From contig OZ244065.1 in assembly GCA_965215505.1 (NCBI GenBank), positions 6,016,001 through 6,080,000 on the forward strand: a stretch of DNA of 64,000 bases. The letters are read 5' to 3'. The stretch comes from Capsulimonadaceae bacterium. GTDB taxonomy: Bacteria > Armatimonadota > Armatimonadia > Armatimonadales > Capsulimonadaceae. A program made the translations under genes and the position numbers. Under the pieces are notes generated by a model. The model saw only the letters and a program-made list of their open reading frames with translations. It did not search any database and was not told the DNA's origin. Within the stretch, counting starts at the first letter, position 1. Every line of letters starts with the position of its first letter. Shown here one piece after another: positions 6,270-14,560 of this stretch.

Positions 6270-7439
6270 ATGAGCAACTACCAGCCCCAGAAATCGGACA
6301 AATTCACGTTCGGCCTGTGGACCGTCGGCAACCCCGGCGTGGACCCCTTCGGTGGGGCCGTCCGCACCCCCGTCACGCCCGTCGAGCGCGTCCGCAGATT
6401 AGGCGAACTCGGTGCCTACGGCGTCAACCTCCATGACAACGACCTCGTCCCCTTCGGCGCGACCGCCGCCGAGCAGGACGCCATCGTCAAAGAATTCAAG
6501 CAGGCGCTTTCAGACAGCGGCGTCGTCTGCGCCATGGCGACCACGAACCTGTTCACCCACGCCGTCTTTAAGGACGGCGCGTTCACCTCAAATGACCCCC
6601 AGGTGCGCGCCCTCGCCCGGCAGAAGGTCATGCGCTCCATGGACCTCGGCGTCGAGCTTGGTGCCCCCATCTACGTCTTCTGGGGCGGGCGCGAGGGCGT
6701 CGAGATCGAGGCCTCCAAGGACCCCGTGACCGCCGCCAAGCGCTTCCGGGACGCCATCGACTTCTTCTGCGAGTATTCGCAGTCGCAGGGCTACAACCTC
6801 AAGTTCGCCCTGGAGGCCAAGCCGAACGAGCCGCGCGGCGACATCTACCTGCCGACGACCGGCGCGATGCTCGGCTTCATCGCGACTCTGGCCCACCCGG
6901 AGATGGTGGGCGTCAACCCCGAGTTCGCGCACGAGACGATGGCCGGCCTGTCCTTCTACCACGCCGTCGCCCAGGCGCTCGAAGCCGGCAAACTGTTCCA
7001 CATTGACTTGAACGGCCAGAAGCCGGGGCGCTACGACCAGGACTTCCGGTTCGGCCAGGAGGACTACAAGCAGAACTTCTTCCTGGTGAAGCTGCTGGAA
7101 GACTACGGCTATGAAGGCCCCAAGCACTTCGATGCTCACCCCCTGCGGACCTCGGACCCCGACGACGTGTGGGAATTCGCCAAGGGCTGCATGCGGACGT
7201 ACCTGATCTTCAAGGAGAAGGCCGCCCAGTTCAACGCCGACCCGGAGATCCAGGCCCTGGTGGCCGAAACCTACAAGCAGGATGCCGACCTGGACCCGAT
7301 CCTGGACGGCAAGTTCAGCCCCCAGAACGCCCAGGCCTTGAAGGGCATGACCTTCGACGCCGAAGCCCTGGCCGCTCGGCCGCTGCCCTACGAGAAGCTG
7401 GACCAGCTCGTCTTCGATCTGCTGCTCGGTGTCCGGTGA
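6270..7439 (+). CDS. xylA: Xylose isomerase (class I, Actinobacteria/Thermus type)
   Basis: [54 protein letters not shown]. Confidence 0.95.
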
Positions 7440-7471
7440 CTGCCCTGAGCCTCGCCCCTGCGTGTTTCGGC

Positions 7472-7494
7472 GTAGGGGCGGGGGGACCCCGCCC
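7472..7494 (+). repeat. GTAG-type REP-like palindrome
   Basis: GTAGGGGCGGGGGGACCCCGCCC; same GTAGGGG foot as copies at 24373, 25969 and 45030. Confidence 0.5.
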
Positions 7495-7565
7495 TCTCGC
7501 TCTATCTTCTCCTGTCTGCCGCGTTCACGCTTTTTCGTGGCCTCATCGGGTACAATATCTCCATC

Positions 7566-8024
7566 TTGGCCCAACTTCGGCGGTTACAACTCATCGTCTG
7601 GTGTCTGGTCCTCCCGCTCCTCGGGACTGGGCTGCCCCGTGAATCCGTCTGGCAGTGCGCCCACGCCGCCCAATCCATCACGCTCCTGCCTGCCTCCCCC
7701 AACGCCATGCCCTGCCGTATGGCGCACCGGACGCCTATGGCCTGCTGCCGGACTGCCTCCTCCGAGACGCCGCAGCGGGCCTCCCTGCACGCGCCCCCCT
7801 GCAAGCCGACCGTCACGCCGGCTGCGCCTACGCCTGTCGCCCGCCTTACCGCCGCCTTTGCACTGCTGATCGCTGCCGATGTGGCCCCCGCTGACTTCCC
7901 GCAGGCCCGTCCGCTTTTGCTCCATTCCCCGGTGGTCACGGCCGCCCCGCGCGGCCCGCCGATCCCTCTTGCCTCCCTGACCCACGCCTCCGCCCACGGC
8001 CTCCGCGCGCCCCCACTTTCCTGA
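7566..8024 (+). CDS. Putative DUF2946-like metal-sensing leader / ribosome-arrest protein
   Basis: N-terminal hydrophobic segment, Cys/Met/His cluster (WQCAH, MPCRMAH, MACC), Pro-rich tail with RGPP (7950-7961) and RAPP (8004-8015) just before the stop; GGGTACAAT -10 upstream; TTG start uncertain. Confidence 0.7.
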   Translation: MAQLRRLQLIVWCLVLPLLGTGLPRESVWQCAHAAQSITLLPASPNAMPCRMAHRTPMACCRTASSETPQRASLHAPPCKPTVTPAAPTPVARLTAAFALLIAADVAPADFPQARPLLLHSPVVTAAPRGPPIPLASLTHASAHGLRAPPLS

Positions 8025-8100
8025 TTCCGTCGTGTCCCGGCGACCGCCGCCGACCCGATGCTTCTCCACGTTACCACTCACCCTCACAGGAGACAGAATC

Positions 8101-9927
8101 TTGAAACACGCGATGCCGCGCGGCTGCCGGGCGTTTGCCCGCGCCGCCATTCCCCTTGCCTTTCTTTCGCTCGCCCCGGCCGCCCACTCCGACCCGAAGG
8201 CCGACCACCAGCGCGGTGCGGACGCCATGCCCGGCATGAGCATGACCGGAATGTCGTCCTCCGTTGACCTCAATGACCCCATGAGCCAGGAGGCGTCGGG
8301 CACGGCCTGGCTCCCCGCGTCCTCGCCGATGTACGGCAAGATGGTCATGGGCAAAAATGGCGACATGCTGATGCTCCACGGGGCTGCCATGGCCCGCTAC
8401 ACCGACACCGGTTCCAAGCGCGGCGACCGCCGCTTCGACGTGCCCAACTGGTTCATGGGCATGTACAGCCACCCCCTGGATGCCAGGTCGCAGCTCGGCC
8501 TGCGCGGCATGTTCAGCCTCGACCCGGTCACCGAGGGCGGCTACGGCTACCCGTTGCTGTTCCAGACCGGCGAGTCCTGGCACGGTCAGCCCCTCCACGA
8601 CCGGCAGCACCCGCATGACCTGGTGAGCGAGCTTGCGGCCACCTATTCGCACCTCCTTGGGGGCGGGCGGTCGGCCTACCTTTACGTCGGCTACCCCGGT
8701 GAACCCGCCCTGGGTCCCCCCACCTACATGCACCGGCTGCTGGCCTATGACCTGGCGGATGCGCCCGTCGGGCACCACTGGCAGGACGCGACCCACATCA
8801 CCTTCGGCGTCGCCACGGCGGGCCTGAACTTCGGCAGCAAGGTCAAGGTCGAGGCGAGCGACTTCACCGGCCGCGAGCCGGACGAGAACCGCTATTCCTT
8901 CGACAAGCCCCGCTTCGACAGCTACAGCGGGCGATTGTCGTATAACCCGGACGCTAACGATGCCCTGCAATTCTCCTACGGCTTCATCAAGAACGCCGAG
9001 GGGGACGGGGCCAATCAGCACCGCATCACCGCCTCCTGGCTGTATAACCGGCCCCTGGGCGAGGACGCGAACTTCACGACGGCATTGGTGTGGGGGCAGA
9101 ACAACCTGACGACCGAGGGCAAGACCAACTCCTATTTGGCCGAGGCCGACTACCAGCACGGCCGAGACACCCTTTTCACGCGCATCGAGAACATCCAGAA
9201 GTCTGGACACGAGCTGGTCCTGCCCGAAGACAGCCTGCAAGGGCGCAAGTTCACCCTGGGCGCGTACACGCTGGGCTATGTGCGTGACCTGACCCACGGG
9301 ACGGGCATTGACACCGGCCTCGGCTTCGCCGTGACGGCGAACACCAAGCCCTCCGCCCTGAACGCCGACTACGGTACGGGCACCCCGGTCTCGTTCCAGA
9401 TTTACCTCCGCCTGCGGCCCTCGCGCATGAAGATGGACGGCATGAAGATGGACGGCATGAAGATGGACGGCATGAAGATGGACGGCATGAAGATGGACGG
9501 CATGAAGATGGACGGCATGAAGATGGACGCTGCTCCCCCTGCGGCCAAGCCGGACGAGGCGCCCGGTGACGCAAAGGCGATGCCGGGAATGGACATGGCC
9601 GCGCCGATGCCTGGCACCGCGCCGACATCCGCGCCCATGAAGATCGCCGCGACTACGGCCGCCGCGCCCAGAGCGGGCGACAACCCGCTGACCATCAGCA
9701 TCACCGACGCGGACGGCAAGCCCGTCGCCGGGGCCTCCATCACAACAAGCGTGGCGATGACCAGCATGGACATGGGCACGACGCACCCGTCCGTCACGGA
9801 GAAGGGCGGCGGCCAGTACGCCGCGACCGTCAATTTCAGCATGGCCGGCCCCTGGCGCGTACAGGTGAAAGTCACCGCGCCGGGCCGGAAGCCCCAGACC
9901 AAAGCCTTCGATTTCAGCGCCAAATAG
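8101..9927 (+). CDS. Secreted Met-rich, probable outer-membrane beta-barrel metal (copper) protein with a C-terminal YtkA/FixH-like domain
   Basis: AGGAG SD and TTG at 8101, signal peptide, EASGTAWLP..SPM, PLLFQTGE, DRQHPHD, GHHWQDATH, alternating beta strands, (MKMDG)n linker, MTSMDMG...FSMAGPW. Confidence 0.75.
   Translation: MKHAMPRGCRAFARAAIPLAFLSLAPAAHSDPKADHQRGADAMPGMSMTGMSSSVDLNDPMSQEASGTAWLPASSPMYGKMVMGKNGDMLMLHGAAMARYTDTGSKRGDRRFDVPNWFMGMYSHPLDARSQLGLRGMFSLDPVTEGGYGYPLLFQTGESWHGQPLHDRQHPHDLVSELAATYSHLLGGGRSAYLYVGYPGEPALGPPTYMHRLLAYDLADAPVGHHWQDATHITFGVATAGLNFGSKVKVEASDFTGREPDENRYSFDKPRFDSYSGRLSYNPDANDALQFSYGFIKNAEGDGANQHRITASWLYNRPLGEDANFTTALVWGQNNLTTEGKTNSYLAEADYQHGRDTLFTRIENIQKSGHELVLPEDSLQGRKFTLGAYTLGYVRDLTHGTGIDTGLGFAVTANTKPSALNADYGTGTPVSFQIYLRLRPSRMKMDGMKMDGMKMDGMKMDGMKMDGMKMDGMKMDAAPPAAKPDEAPGDAKAMPGMDMAAPMPGTAPTSAPMKIAATTAAAPRAGDNPLTISITDADGKPVAGASITTSVAMTSMDMGTTHPSVTEKGGGQYAATVNFSMAGPWRVQVKVTAPGRKPQTKAFDFSAK
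9427..9529 (+). repeat. Perfect 15-nt coding tandem repeat (ATGAAGATGGACGGC, 6 copies plus a partial), encoding MKMDG
   Basis: Directly visible; no spacers. Confidence 0.95.
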
Positions 9928-9978
9928 AGACGACTGTGCGCACACACGACGACGCCACAGCGCCTCGGAAGGAACACC

Positions 9979-10254
9979 ATGAAGACACTCCTACTGACGA
10001 CCGCCGCCCTCGCGGCGCTGACGAGCGGGGCGACAGCCGCCCCCGCTCACGCCCCCAAGCCGGGCGCGGTCAAGGCCGCCCTGATCTGCCCCGTCTCGGG
10101 CGACAAGATCGCCTCCGCCGCCAAAGCCTACAACCACGAGACCTACAAGGGCAAGACCTACTACTTCTGCTGCCCGGACTGCAAGCCCGCCTTCGACAAG
10201 AACCCCGGCAGGATCATCGCCGCCGCCGCCAAGGGCAAATACCGGAAGATGTGA
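9979..10254 (+). CDS. Secreted YHS-domain protein
   Basis: Signal peptide, CPVSG, YKGKTYYFCCPDCKPAFDKNP. Confidence 0.9.
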   Translation: MKTLLLTTAALAALTSGATAAPAHAPKPGAVKAALICPVSGDKIASAAKAYNHETYKGKTYYFCCPDCKPAFDKNPGRIIAAAAKGKYRKM

Positions 10255-10292
10255 CCGTTGGACATGATCTCTCACGCGAAAGGAAGAACCCG

Positions 10293-10541
10293 ATGAACAA
10301 GATGCTCGCACTCAGCGCACTCGCGCTGACCCTGCTCCCCTTGACCGCGAACGCCGCGCCGACACGCCACGCCAAGACGGCCAAGACGGCCGCGACCATG
10401 TACCAGTGCCAGTCCTGCCACATGAAGGTCACGGCGGCGGTCGCTAAGAAGGACGGCTACAAGGACCCGATGGACGGCGGGAAGCTGGTCCCCGTCACGG
10501 CGGCCCCGACCGGCAAGGCGACGGGCGGCACGAAAATGTAA
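10293..10541 (+). CDS. Small secreted heavy-metal-binding-domain-like protein
   Basis: AAGGA SD, signal peptide, MYQCQSCHM...KDPMDGGKLVP. Confidence 0.7.
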   Translation: MNKMLALSALALTLLPLTANAAPTRHAKTAKTAATMYQCQSCHMKVTAAVAKKDGYKDPMDGGKLVPVTAAPTGKATGGTKM

Positions 10542-10548
10542 GCCGCTC

Positions 10549-10577
10549 GGCAGCCCCGGTCATGGACCGGGGCTGCC
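10549..10577 (+). terminator. Stem-loop between the metal-binding gene and the permease
   Basis: ggcagccccggt-catgg-accggggctgcc; no U-tract. Confidence 0.4.
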
Positions 10578-10616
10578 ACTCCTGCCCCCTGACAGCGACC
10601 ATGGGGAGACAGAGAC

Positions 10617-11756
10617 ATGGAAACGATGCCCCATCAACTGGCCTGGCTGTGGCGCAGCCTCTTCGAGTCGGCGGCGATGTTCTGGGAGGTCCTGTGGGCG
10701 CTCGTCCTCGGCTTCGCCGTCTCCGCCCTGCTGCAAGTGTTCGTCAGCAAGGAGCGCATGACGCAGGCTCTGGGCCGGGCGGGGCCGCGCGAGATGGCCC
10801 TGGCGACCGCCTTCGGCGCGGCCTCTTCCTCCTGCTCCTATGCCGCCGTCGCGGCGGCCCGGACCGCCTTCCAGAAGGGCGCGGCCCTCGCCCCGACCTT
10901 GGCCTTCATGTTCGCCTCCACGAACCTCGTCTTCGAGCTGGGGTTCGTCCTGTGGCTCCTGATGGGCTGGCAGTTCGTGCTGGCCGAGACGGTCGGCGCG
11001 TTCGTCCTGATCGCCGTCATGTGGCTGTTGGTCACGCTGACGCTGCCGCACGGACTGGAAGACGAGGCCCGCGCCCACGAGGAGGCGAAAGATGGCGACC
11101 ACGGAGGACACGACCACGGAGGGCATGACCACGGAGGGCATTACATGGGCGGCGGCAGGCTGAGAGCCGTGGCCGACGCCTTCGCGATGGACTGGGGCAT
11201 GCTGTGGAAGGAGATGCTCCTCGGCTTCATCATCGCCGGGTTTCTAGCCGTGCTGGTGTCCAACGGGATGTGGCGGGCTTTGTTCCTGACACACTCCGGC
11301 TCGCCCGCCCTGCGGCTGCTGGAAAACGCCGTCGTCGGGCCGCTGATCGCCGTGCTGTCTTTCGTCTGCTCCATCGGGAACGTCCCGCTGGCGAGCATCC
11401 TGTGGTCGGGCGGCATCTCCTTCGGCGGCGTGATCGCCTTCATCTACGCCGACCTGATCATCGTCCCGCTCATCATCGTCTACGGCAAGTATTACGGGCG
11501 CCGCGCCGCCGCCTACATCACCCTCGTTCTGTTCGCCTCCATGGTGATCGCAGGGCTGGTCGTGGACCTGCTGTTCGGCACGCTGCACCTGATCCCGACC
11601 GGCCCGCGCCCCGCCTCCGCGCTCTCGCAGGCGCACTTCGCCTGGAACTACACGACCTGGCTGGACCTCCTCGCCCTCGCCGCGGCGGCCTTCCTCGCCG
11701 CCGCCCACCTCCGCAGTATGAAAGCCATGACGCACGAACACCACCATCATCATTGA
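10617..11756 (+). CDS. DUF318/ArsP-family permease with His-rich loop and poly-His tail
   Basis: ASSSCSYAA, FMFASTNLV, SFVCSIGNVPLA, FIYADL, (DHGGH)3 loop, C-terminal HEHHHHH. Confidence 0.85.
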   Translation: METMPHQLAWLWRSLFESAAMFWEVLWALVLGFAVSALLQVFVSKERMTQALGRAGPREMALATAFGAASSSCSYAAVAAARTAFQKGAALAPTLAFMFASTNLVFELGFVLWLLMGWQFVLAETVGAFVLIAVMWLLVTLTLPHGLEDEARAHEEAKDGDHGGHDHGGHDHGGHYMGGGRLRAVADAFAMDWGMLWKEMLLGFIIAGFLAVLVSNGMWRALFLTHSGSPALRLLENAVVGPLIAVLSFVCSIGNVPLASILWSGGISFGGVIAFIYADLIIVPLIIVYGKYYGRRAAAYITLVLFASMVIAGLVVDLLFGTLHLIPTGPRPASALSQAHFAWNYTTWLDLLALAAAAFLAAAHLRSMKAMTHEHHHHH

Positions 11757-11831: not shown

Positions 11832-12359
11832 ATGATTCTGCGCCTCTCGCTGGAACTGCCGGAAGACCTGGCCTACATCAAGATCACGCGGATATTAGGC
11901 CGGGCGCTGCTGGAACACCTACAGGTTGACGCGACCGACATCAACGACATCGAGATCCTGGTCGGCGAGCTGTGTTCCAACGTCCTGCGCCACGCCCAGG
12001 GCCACGACGAGCTTTTCCATGTCGTGCTGGAATACTTCAGCGACCACGTCGGCATCATGGTCCAGGACCGGGGGCAGGGCTTCTCGTTCAAAGACGTGCC
12101 CCAGGCCGGGACGAGCCGGGCGGACTTCGGGGGCGGCGAGCGCATCGGCGGCTACGGCATGACCCTGATCCAGAAGCTCTCCGACCACCTGGAGTTCCGC
12201 CGGACCGACCCGCACGGCACCACCGTCTGTGCGGAGAAGAAGCTGCACTACCGCACGGACGCCGCCGCCGCCGCCGCCGACCGGCTGAACAAGTCCGAGG
12301 GGCATGCCGACGTGACGACTTCCTACGAGGAGGCCCCCACTCCCGGCCCCTGTGATTGA
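11832..12359 (+). CDS. RsbW/SpoIIAB-like anti-sigma factor (HATPase_c_2)
   Basis: GELCSNVLRHA, VQDRGQGF, GGYGMTLIQKLSD, GTTV. Confidence 0.85.
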   Translation: MILRLSLELPEDLAYIKITRILGRALLEHLQVDATDINDIEILVGELCSNVLRHAQGHDELFHVVLEYFSDHVGIMVQDRGQGFSFKDVPQAGTSRADFGGGERIGGYGMTLIQKLSDHLEFRRTDPHGTTVCAEKKLHYRTDAAAAAADRLNKSEGHADVTTSYEEAPTPGPCD

Positions 12360-13593: not shown

Positions 13594-14007
13594 ATGTCGA
13601 AGTATGAGCCTGCTCTGCTTCCCGAAGTAGAAGGTGTGGAAGTGTTGGCCCTCGGCAAACTCACAGGTAGCGATGGTGAGTCTCCTTTCTCGATAAAGGA
13701 TTGGGCCGAGTTTGCGGTGACTGCTTCTGTTCAGGCCGATGAACACCGGACTCAGCATATCGCAGGACTCTGGCGCGGATTGCCTCCAGCCGGACAGGCA
13801 AGATGCCATGTGCCGCCTTTTGCACTGAAGTTTTTCGCCGCAGGTGAGATGTTTCTGGAAGCATCCCTCTGTTGGCAATGCAACAACATCTGGATTCAGG
13901 AAGGGGAGACATTTTCCGTCTACGAGTTTGACGGCAGAGCAGAAGTCTCTCGGGAGCTGCTTGCTGTCTTCAAAACTGTCAGCAAGGTGGAGAAGACGAA
14001 ACAATGA
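13594..14007 (+). CDS. Hypothetical protein (lower GC; ARCHVPP...CWQC)
   Basis: Clean ORF between guaB3 and the antitoxin, overlapping the next start. Confidence 0.6.
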   Translation: MSKYEPALLPEVEGVEVLALGKLTGSDGESPFSIKDWAEFAVTASVQADEHRTQHIAGLWRGLPPAGQARCHVPPFALKFFAAGEMFLEASLCWQCNNIWIQEGETFSVYEFDGRAEVSRELLAVFKTVSKVEKTKQ

Positions 14008-14240
14008 CTATCACATTGAGACCGGAAACGGAAGCCCGCCTGCGGGAAAGGGCGTTGCGCGACGAAGCAGATCCGAGCGAACTCGCTGACGCCCTCTTAT
14101 CGAATGTACTGGTGGACGATACCCGGCGCATGAGTAAGTCTGAGATAGAAGCCTCTTACCGAGCAATGGCTGCGGATGAAGAACGAGAAGCGGAAGCCAT
14201 GGAGTGGAGCGAAGGCACTCTGGGGCATGTTTTTAGATGA
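14004..14240 (+). CDS. Putative antitoxin of the MazF/PemK toxin
   Basis: RHH-like N-terminus (MTITLRPETEARLRERA), acidic tail YRAMAADEEREAEAMEW; ATGA overlap with the toxin. Confidence 0.75.
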   Translation: MTITLRPETEARLRERALRDEADPSELADALLSNVLVDDTRRMSKSEIEASYRAMAADEEREAEAMEWSEGTLGHVFR

Positions 14241-14560
14241 AACGCGGTGAAGTCTGGTGGGTCGCCTTCGATCCGTCCGTCGGCGGTGAAATCCAGAAAA
14301 CGCGCCCTGCTGTCATCGTCAGTAACGACAGCGCGAACGCTTCATTGAATCGGCTACAAGTCGTTGCCGTATCAAGTCAGGTAAACCGAGTATACGCGGC
14401 GGAAGCCATCGTGACTTTGAACGGCCAGGTGCGGAAGGTCATGGCGGATCAACTCACGACCGTCAGCAAACTACGGGTCGGCGGCAAGGTAGGCGAACTC
14501 TCGGACGCTGATATGGCGAACGTAGATCGAATTATCAAGTTTCAGTTGGGGATGTCTTAA
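14237..14560 (+). CDS. mazF: MazF/PemK-family toxin endoribonuclease
   Basis: MKRGEVWWVAFDPSVGGEIQKTRPAVIVSND, DQLTTVSKLR. Confidence 0.92.
   Translation: MKRGEVWWVAFDPSVGGEIQKTRPAVIVSNDSANASLNRLQVVAVSSQVNRVYAAEAIVTLNGQVRKVMADQLTTVSKLRVGGKVGELSDADMANVDRIIKFQLGMS

Follow-up and report, generated by a model that had tools for sequence, protein, structure and literature searches.

The leader gene and its family

We analyzed a window of 64,000 nucleotides (nt) of DNA from Capsulimonadaceae bacterium (GTDB lineage Bacteria; Armatimonadota; Armatimonadia; Armatimonadales; Capsulimonadaceae; NCBI GenBank assembly GCA_965215505.1, contig OZ244065.1, forward-strand positions 6,016,001 to 6,080,000) and in particular a small gene within it, an open reading frame (ORF) of 152 residues at 7566..8024. 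This ORF, referred to below as the leader, stands 76 nt ahead of the gene for a Met-rich exported protein and is a candidate regulator of the copper-type genes behind it. It lies on the forward (+) strand, as do all the features described here from its promoter down to the permease gene that ends at 11756.

The leader begins with a TTG codon at 7566, the sole in-frame start that retains the N-terminus conserved among its homologs. Residues 6–24 (7581..7637) form a hydrophobic segment, with Kyte-Doolittle windows above 1.5 and Arg residues just before it, an arrangement that hydropathy and the alignments show to be kept in the family and that represents a putative Sec signal peptide or anchor. 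A Tat signal, considered for the RR at residues 5–6, was rejected as that pair is not kept in distant homologs. Cysteines occupy positions 13, 31, 50, 60, 61 and 79, with Met at 48, 52 and 58 and His at 33, 54 and 75, and a motif check of the 152-residue sequence identified neither CxxC nor CxxxC. Most of these residues fall in a Cys/Met cluster, W29xC31, A47MPC50, M58xC60C61 and C79xP81 (7656..7802), whose columns are invariant in all 16 aligned sequences and which may bind metal. Toward the C-terminus are two proline motifs of the kind that stalls ribosomes: RGPP at R129–P132 (7950..7961), whose R129 is invariant, and RAPP at R147–P150 (8004..8015), for which L146, P149 and P150 are invariant. 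The RAPP is followed by only two codons (Leu, Ser) and the stop codon TGA at 8022–8024. An initial annotation, made from the DNA letters without database searches, had described the 152-residue ORF, its hydrophobic N-terminus and both motifs, the motifs with exact coordinates, and was also right in its account of a Cys/Met/His cluster lacking CxxC and of an Armatimonadota host.

The DNA is GC-rich (66.5% G+C), with several long overlapping ORFs in other frames at the leader locus, and we therefore weighed codon usage and divergence together with homology. In the leader frame the third codon position is the richest in GC (0.80, compared to 0.71 for the first and 0.63 for the second), although below the third-position values of the neighboring genes (0.89–0.93). 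Between the leader and its counterpart in the nearest relative (locus L012), 59 codons are identical, 42 differ synonymously and 51 non-synonymously. The existence of homologs, the frequency of synonymous changes and the GC-richest position being the third in this frame show that this ORF is a genuine gene and a conserved one. The publicly available call of it in the source genome (P0002) covers only the C-terminal 95 residues, from Met58 on; the region 7566–7737 is left out, and with it the TTG codon, the signal segment and two invariant cysteines, Cys31 and Cys50.

Homologs were sought by several routes. A six-frame search of 40 related genomes identified leader matches in nine (E <= 3.8e-4), a protein database search with the window leader returned seven matches, P0002 among them, and a profile of 16 homologs searched against 1.84 billion cluster representatives gave 50 matches at E <= 1e-3, 44 of which were at <= 1e-10. 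A profile search of genome contigs with a narrow family alignment identified one locus. Among 301 sampled genomes of the phylum, the leader family was found in 11, which are the window's own genome and 10 of the 18 others from the same taxonomic family, and in none of the 282 genomes elsewhere. The family is thus small and, in this sample, restricted to one lineage of Armatimonadota, a little-studied phylum. Its members are 25–86% identical to the window leader, the distant ones having as little as 25–34% identity, and all 16 aligned sequences agree at 16 columns: P24, W29, C31, A47, M48, P49, C50, M58, C60, C61, C79, P81, R129, L146, P149 and P150. Five of the cysteines (C31, C50, C60, C61 and C79) are therefore invariant in the family.

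The best-kept part of this fast-evolving protein is its C-terminus. Of 55 database proteins (P0001–P0055) over which motifs were counted, 46 have RAPP (42) or RGPP (4) within seven residues of the C-terminus, with exactly two residues after the terminal motif in 38 of the 46. The remaining nine either align to the N-terminal part of the profile only or extend beyond the motif, and look like frame errors or altered ends. Upstream, 41 of these 46 proteins carry a further R-x-P-P(P), which in 40 of the 41 precedes the terminal motif by 18–20 residues (19 in 31); it is mostly RQRPPP, with RGPP in the sub-group to which the window leader belongs. The distance from the last invariant cysteine (that of CxP, C79 in the window) to the R of RAPP is 66–72 in 42 of 43 proteins and 69–71 in 35, with a family mode of 70 and a value of 68 in the window, whereas the distances from the other cysteines scatter over 13–23 residues (86–99 from CC and 98–119 from MPC). 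As the motif spacing and the distance from the last cysteine to RAPP are both kept across the family, we judge from the alignments that the double motif and this Cys-to-RAPP ruler are family hallmarks and not accidents of the window; the tandem motifs in the initial annotation thus describe the family as well as its own sequence.

Copper-type genes behind the leader

The gene directly behind the leader (8101..9927, TTG start) encodes a 608-residue Met-rich (6.6% Met) exported protein composed of an N-terminal domain of ~440 residues, a linker with repeated MDGMK units and, at the C-terminus, a YtkA/FixH-like domain (Pfam YtkA, 1.2e-14). The linker has six MDGMK repeats in its translation, encoded by a 15-nt tandem repeat at 9433..9522; at the same place in the Met-rich proteins of relatives the repeats are shorter or absent. 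The C-terminal domain has a weak match to PDB entry 9ll2, 'Copper resistance protein' (E 0.0024). For the N-terminal domain we examined the Atlas model of P0065, a 74%-identical homolog, whose N-terminal 440 residues have structure neighbors at TM 0.82–0.85. The neighbor clusters include one whose members all have a heavy-metal-binding domain, one with Pfam Copper-bind in 24% of its members and one that is Wzi-like, which we consider a lead, not proof, that this domain may be an outer-membrane beta-barrel. The protein belongs to a large family with at least 7,634 database matches, and these Met-rich, YtkA-bearing predicted outer-membrane proteins, together with the ArsP-type permeases described below, represent candidate copper-handling proteins.

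Three further genes follow: one for a YHS-domain protein (9979..10254; Pfam YHS, 2e-09), one for a small exported protein whose translation has one CxxCH (10305..10541; Cytochrome_C7 at E 0.0074, weak and below the cut-off) and one for an ArsP_1-type permease with a His-rich loop and tail (10617..11756; Pfam ArsP_1, 1.5e-64). The permease matched the NCBIfam SO_0444 Cu/Zn efflux family only weakly (56.9 bits, cut-off 300). The block 9936–11756 that holds these three genes is missing at this place in L012, where the Met-rich gene is followed directly by HATPase_c_2 and IMPDH-like genes (those at 11832 and 12399 in the window); either the window gained the block by insertion or L012 lost it by deletion.

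Comparison of 18 leader loci revealed that the next gene is of a copper type in all of them, in agreement with the metal-handling operon of the initial annotation. The Met-rich/YtkA protein is the next gene in nine loci, a cupredoxin in eight (each of the eight matches a rusticyanin model at 1e-14 to 1e-21, short of the cut-off of that model) and an ArsP permease in one (L020). The cupredoxin gene is followed in turn by the Met-rich protein, by an ArsP permease (L036, L037) or by CusB-CusA-OEP, and in two loci cupredoxin and Met-rich domain are fused in one frame (L035:2181-3485 and L039:2059-3507), an arrangement that matches the database protein P0105 (Pfam Copper-bind and YtkA). The Met-rich protein is 73–76% identical across loci whose leaders share only 25–34%. 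Since the architecture of the leader is kept while its copper-gene partner changes, the leader appears to behave like a portable cis-regulator.

Three metagenome contigs (L021, L022 and L023) have the first ~87 residues of the leader followed by unrelated sequence and a stop; downstream, all that remains ahead of the HATPase gene is the end of the YtkA domain. In these contigs a deletion seems to have taken away the stall motifs of the leader along with most of the Met-rich gene. Elsewhere in the window, a PemK/MazF-type toxin gene was identified at 14237–14560 (Pfam, 5.6e-25), with its start overlapped by a 78-residue ORF (14004–14240) that has no Pfam match and is likely its antitoxin.

Initiation regions, predicted fold and proposed mechanism

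A -10-like hexamer, TACAAT, lies 9 nt upstream of the leader's TTG (7551..7556) and is a probable promoter, from which transcription would start close to the codon. A TAnnnT hexamer, usually with GG before it, was found 6–9 nt ahead of the leader start in all 18 loci; a strict sigma-70 scan gave no full promoter for the leader. Because the hexamer is so close to the start, the leader messenger RNA (mRNA) is probably leaderless or nearly so. In four loci of the cupredoxin type (L024, L035, L036 and L039) the motif TATTATAGCATAGG is present ~50–65 nt upstream of the leader start, ahead of the -10-like box; it is not present in the window and may be a regulator binding site. A single weak terminator-like site was detected upstream of the leader (7481–7498) and none between the leader and the gene at 8101, and no Rfam family matched 7300–8300 at E <= 1.

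The next gene's Shine-Dalgarno (SD) sequence, AGGAG, also named in the initial annotation, is at 8088..8092 and is identical in L012. That annotation further proposed that a helix of GATTCCGTC (8023–8031) with GACAGAATC (8092–8100), extended by TCC with GGA, buries this SD. Eight of the nine pairs of the helix can form (the mismatch is C8028–A8095), TCC/GGA adds three, and in L012 a U in place of C8028 makes the 9-bp helix perfect. The minimum-energy fold, however, uses only the outer five pairs, GAUUC 8023–8027 with GAAUC 8096–8100, to which it adds UUUC 8017–8020 with GAAA 8103–8106, and it pairs CGUCG 8028–8032 with CGAUG 8056–8060. Its 5' arms accordingly extend over 8017..8032 and its 3' arms over 8096..8106, which covers the spacer and the TTG start codon (8101–8103). 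The SD is also paired in this prediction (GGAGA 8089–8093), but its partner is UCUCC at 8063..8067, of which position 8063 varies in one related contig, and not the TCC, and it is mainly the start codon that is buried. The fold of 8010–8112 has a predicted energy of -24.5 kcal/mol (z = -2.39, with three of 200 shuffles as good), which is modest alone; the corresponding L012 fold is at -33.2 kcal/mol (z = -4.20, 0 of 200 shuffles).

A ribosome covers ~15 nt past the first base of its P-site, which would place the leading edge of a ribosome arrested at RAPP at ~8025, over the UUUC arm and three bases of GAUUC. When this footprint is blocked in the fold, predicted pairing of the start-codon region falls in the window from 0.66 to 0.18, with a similar fall in L012 (0.67 to 0.21). 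The earlier proposal that a ribosome stalled at RAPP covers the 5' arm and frees the SD is not supported in that form, as only three of the nine arm bases would be covered and predicted SD pairing hardly changes. Since blocking the footprint opens the start region and leaves the SD much as it was, arrest is predicted to act chiefly on the start codon and spacer. In a divergent metagenome contig, 13 substitutions fall in 8032–8086, compared to none in 7989–8031 or 8087–8109, a pattern that fits constraint on both arms, though the stop codon, SD and start codon are constrained anyway.

In 12 of the 18 loci the expected number of pairs that join the arrested footprint to the initiation region of the next gene was three or more, and in five of the 18 the observed value was reached by at most 5% of footprint shuffles. 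Three cupredoxin-type loci (L024, L034 and L039) share a hairpin that reaches from the stop codon to beside the SD, with 25 of 27 cells paired and one compensatory exchange of A-U to G-C. The terminal PP opens with a CCT codon in 11 of the 18 loci, which creates CCUCC; for comparison, CCT makes up 11% of Pro codons in the genes downstream and 16% elsewhere in the leaders. From this we suggest that the codons of the arrest motif may often double as an anti-SD; the window, with CCC CCA, is not among these loci. The intergenic region of L017 (G017) holds, ~60–190 nt past the leader stop and ahead of the Met-rich gene, a long and near-perfect inverted repeat in a fold of ~-100 kcal/mol over 262 nt, an insertion that may be a small mobile or repeat element; a similar long hairpin is present in L035.

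To our knowledge, CutF and CruR, both of which belong to the DUF2946 family, are the only two proteins for which experiments have shown regulation by a copper-sensing nascent peptide that is exported. The two differ in their output. In the published account of CutF, copper on an exported CxxxC prolongs stalling at a C-terminal GPPP, and the stalled ribosome melts a stem-loop over cutO's ribosome-binding site (PMC9973294; bioRxiv 10.1101/2025.02.05.636593). For CruR, the published account describes copper acting via a CXXC to relieve arrest at RAPP, upon which Rho terminates transcription before the gene of a TonB-dependent transporter (PMC9426467).

By analogy with CutF, we give a probability of about 60% to the reading that the leader is a cis-acting copper-sensing peptide which regulates the genes behind it by arrest of its own ribosome. 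Transcription would start a few bases before the TTG and produce a leaderless mRNA, and the hydrophobic N-terminus would bring the nascent chain cotranslationally to the Sec translocon, such that the Cys/Met cluster (residues 31–81) would emerge on the periplasmic side while the C-terminus was still in synthesis. The ribosome would then pause at RGPP (129–132) and arrest at RAPP, with its leading edge (~8025) on the base of the fold, where 8017–8027 is paired with 8096–8106. Opening of that base would free the 8101 gene's start codon together with its spacer. The duration of arrest would be set by the pull of export on the chain, and that pull would be altered by copper on the exported cysteines: copper on the cluster may lower the releasing pull, prolong arrest and thereby induce the detoxification-type genes. 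By the logic of CutF, copper most probably prolongs arrest and turns the downstream genes on, because those genes look like copper detoxification and efflux genes. Potentially, the double motif and the 69–71-residue ruler provide testable handles on how a signal passes from the periplasm through the translocon and the exit tunnel to the peptidyl-transferase center.

A number of our results weigh against this reading. Copper, rather than another soft metal, is inferred from the neighboring genes only, and export of the leader from hydropathy alone; TTG would be an unusual start for a leaderless mRNA; and HAPP or PAPP replaces the terminal RAPP in two of the 18 loci. As to the fold, the SD stays about half paired when the arrested footprint is blocked (0.55 to 0.51 in the window; 0.51–0.59 with L012 included), and the window's footprint pairing of 4.0 expected pairs, against 1.4 +/- 2.0, is not significant by itself, with 12% of shuffles reaching it. 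The pairing of footprint to initiation region is absent in six of the 18 loci (L015, L016, L017, L018, L020 and L036), so that the helix of the initial annotation is not a feature of the whole family, and in L020 the next start is only 15 nt past the leader stop, for which reason an arrested ribosome there would hinder and not help initiation. The covariation in the hairpin of L024, L034 and L039, a comparison of three sequences, is no better than in shuffles (330 of 500 reach it). In addition, the loci are kin, so counts over them overstate independent support and none of them is a statistical test.

One of these difficulties would be met by an alternative that has the same sensor and arrest and, as in CruR, a transcriptional output: the arrested ribosome would shield a C-rich Rho-loading stretch, with the remainder of the operon then transcribed, and its release would let Rho terminate before or inside the next gene. 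In nine of nine loci the last 300 nt of the leader together with the intergenic region are C-rich and G-poor, with (C-G)/(C+G) of 0.18–0.56 compared to -0.02 to 0.12 in the next gene, rho is encoded in the window's genome, the precedent of CruR working via Rho is published (PMC9426467), and the six loci without footprint pairing would be covered as well. Nevertheless, we consider this alternative, the main rival, unlikely. The intergenic regions are short (76 nt in the window and 15–48 nt in five loci), their terminator scan was negative, and the C-richness stems partly from Pro and Ala codons. Moreover, copper acting through CruR shuts off an uptake gene, whereas the genes here look to be of a detoxification or efflux type.

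A second alternative dispenses with regulation: the leader would bind copper as a stable protein, periplasmic or anchored in the membrane, such as a chaperone or a partner for the Met-rich protein, and its proline motifs would only slow translation for targeting. The five invariant cysteines and conserved Met, the constant company of copper proteins and a length of 152 residues, long for a leader, could all be explained in this way. Against it, the best-kept features are the stall motifs, their distance to the stop and the ruler, none of which a folded domain needs, while the rest of the protein diverges fast, to 25–34% identity, and the partner gene differs between loci. The Atlas model of the homolog P0006 is poor (pLDDT 0.46); its neighbors, unnamed Bacteroidota clusters at a score of 0.94 with ~150 shared features, are a lead only. 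RAPP is also generally avoided in proteomes, according to PMC12992588, and occurs 71 times in the window's genome compared to 419 occurrences of AAPP. Taken together, these points make a role as a copper-binding protein alone quite improbable.

A third alternative is plain translational coupling, in which ribosomes that end the leader open the fold or re-initiate with neither regulated arrest nor metal sensing. The 5' arm overlaps the stop codon, such that any terminating ribosome opens it; blocking the footprint of a terminating ribosome gives a start-region pairing of 0.46 in the window and 0.45 in L012; and the 15-nt gap in L020 would suit coupling. We nonetheless think it very improbable as the full account since it leaves the RAPP near the stop, the second motif, the Cys cluster and the ruler unexplained. 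Finally, the idea that the leader is a chance open frame in GC-rich DNA and no gene, for which the overlapping ORFs, the lower third-position GC and the 95-residue public call might be cited, is refuted by homologs that keep frame, motifs and length at 25–86% identity with frequent synonymous changes.

Returning to the copper-sensing, arrest-based reading, we put forward tentatively, and with more doubt than confidence, an extension of it in which a metal-sensing arrest leader was invented independently with two checkpoints and, in most members, with CCUCC arrest codons as a hidden anti-SD. At the first stall (R-G/P-P-P) the last sensor cysteine would be ~50 residues from the peptidyl-transferase center, which is about the distance at which the CutF motif would sit in the SecY vestibule. 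At the second stall, at the EF-P-resistant RAPP 19 residues later, the whole Cys cluster would be outside. The chain would thus be read at two export depths before the next gene was opened, and the CCU-CCN arrest codons (CCUCC) of most members would be an anti-SD concealed by the stalled ribosome.

Comparison with DUF2946 leaders and other arrest peptides

The leader had initially been compared to the DUF2946 family (Pfam PF11162, model cut-off 23.7 bits) of CruR and CutF, and our searches argue against membership. The Pfam model did not match the window leader even at E <= 1, nor any of 13 family members at E <= 10, and a search of the window's genome with it at E <= 10 left the leader locus untouched. 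DUF2946 was found above the cut-off in nine of the 301 genomes of the phylum, none of which is a leader-carrying genome of the window's taxonomic family. A profile-profile comparison (hhalign) of the 16-sequence leader alignment with seven Armatimonadota DUF2946 proteins gave a probability of 1.2%, and the 18 columns that aligned lie entirely within the signal region. The defining features of DUF2946 proteins are a CXXC, a C-terminal RAPP and an export signal, whereas the invariant cysteine contexts of the leader (WxC, MPC, xCC and CxP) include neither CXXC nor CxxxC. By these sequence comparisons the leader family is not DUF2946. The double motif is not unique to it, as one Armatimonadota DUF2946 protein (L040) has RAPP and RGPP 22 residues apart.

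The leader does have the features of the RAPP-like arrest peptides, namely an R[AG]PP core near the C-terminus of a small secretory-type protein upstream of a gene. Fujiwara et al. 2025 (PMC12992588) showed that RAPP and RGPP give strong, EF-P-resistant arrest behind differing N-terminal sequences, and that in many lineages there is an enrichment, ahead of copper-related and TonB genes, of small secretory proteins that end in these motifs. ApdA, ApdP, ApcA and the Streptomyces set of that paper are likewise small secretory proteins encoded upstream of a regulated gene, with RAPP or RGPP close to their C-terminus (PMC12992588; PMC10951233). The arrest peptides tested experimentally monitor Sec/YidC or other functions, and none described in the text examined has a Cys cluster or a double motif. 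A search of the main text and of eight supplementary files of PMC12992588 for 'Armatimonad' gave no match; one further file and the CutF-like list of PMC9973294 lay outside that search and may hold members. The claim of a new variant is therefore sustained in part: the family is separate from DUF2946 and has a double motif, but RAPP/RGPP leaders at copper genes are already in print (PMC12992588), and because such metal-linked leaders have been published across phyla our result is less surprising than the initial annotation judged. What is new is a lineage-restricted family of candidate arrest leaders of copper operons, unrelated to DUF2946, with a double stall motif and a 69–71-residue Cys-to-RAPP ruler.

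With CruR (Bp2923 of Bordetella pertussis) the leader shares its position as an upstream ORF, a Cys motif, a RAPP near the C-terminus, three residues before the end in CruR and two in the leader, and a conserved spacing from cysteine to RAPP, and the export signal of CruR has a putative counterpart in the leader; both head a copper-related operon (PMC9426467). CruR differs in having a CXXC, a CXXC-to-RAPP spacing of 45 residues that matters for its function and an intergenic region of 162 nt compared to the 76 nt here, and in its Rho-mediated response, by which relief of stalling turns a TonB-dependent uptake gene off, whereas the genes of the leader are of a detoxification type (PMC9426467). 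A CruR-like arrangement is present elsewhere in the source genome, where we identified two further small RAPP-ended ORFs of 116 and 118 residues at G000:C1:5541265-5541615 (L026:266-616) and G000:C1:3453609-3453965 (L027:210-566). Both have a hydrophobic N-terminus, an HHTDEG or VHTEDLG motif and SPRAPP six or three residues before the stop, and no Pfam family at E <= 0.001. One is separated by 37 nt from a TonB-dependent receptor gene that is followed by ExbB, ExbD and TonB, and the other has a TonB-dependent receptor ~400 nt downstream.

The closest likeness is to CutF of the Rhodobacter capsulatus cutFOG operon. CutF is a small exported protein, as the leader is predicted to be, with a Cys motif, a proline stall motif, two further residues and a stop (...GPPPRL), it acts in cis upstream of a copper-detoxification gene, its GPPP is resembled by the leader's upstream R-G/P-P-P(P), and the RBS-shielding stem-loop of cutFOG has a counterpart in the predicted intergenic fold here. 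Judged by the CutF-like filter of Ozturk et al. 2023 (PMC9973294), the leader is just over the length limit at 152 residues, while its PP at 149–150 and its 76-nt same-strand gap agree with the rules and its signal was judged by hydropathy only. The differences are that no sequence relationship was found, that the leader has no CxxxC, and that its terminal motif is RAPP, of the EF-P-resistant kind, with two motifs 18–19 residues apart. From the last cysteine of the leader, C79, 49 residues intervene to R129 of the first motif and 67 to R147 of the second; the former value is near the published distance from cysteine to stall of 45 residues in CutF, whose cysteines are given in mature numbering (PMC9973294; bioRxiv 10.1101/2025.02.05.636593). 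The genes behind the leader encode a YtkA-bearing protein, a cupredoxin, an ArsP permease or Cus proteins and not a multicopper oxidase. The presence of the architecture of CutF and CruR in a protein unrelated to them in sequence argues that this design is easily re-invented and may be commoner than family-based searches show.

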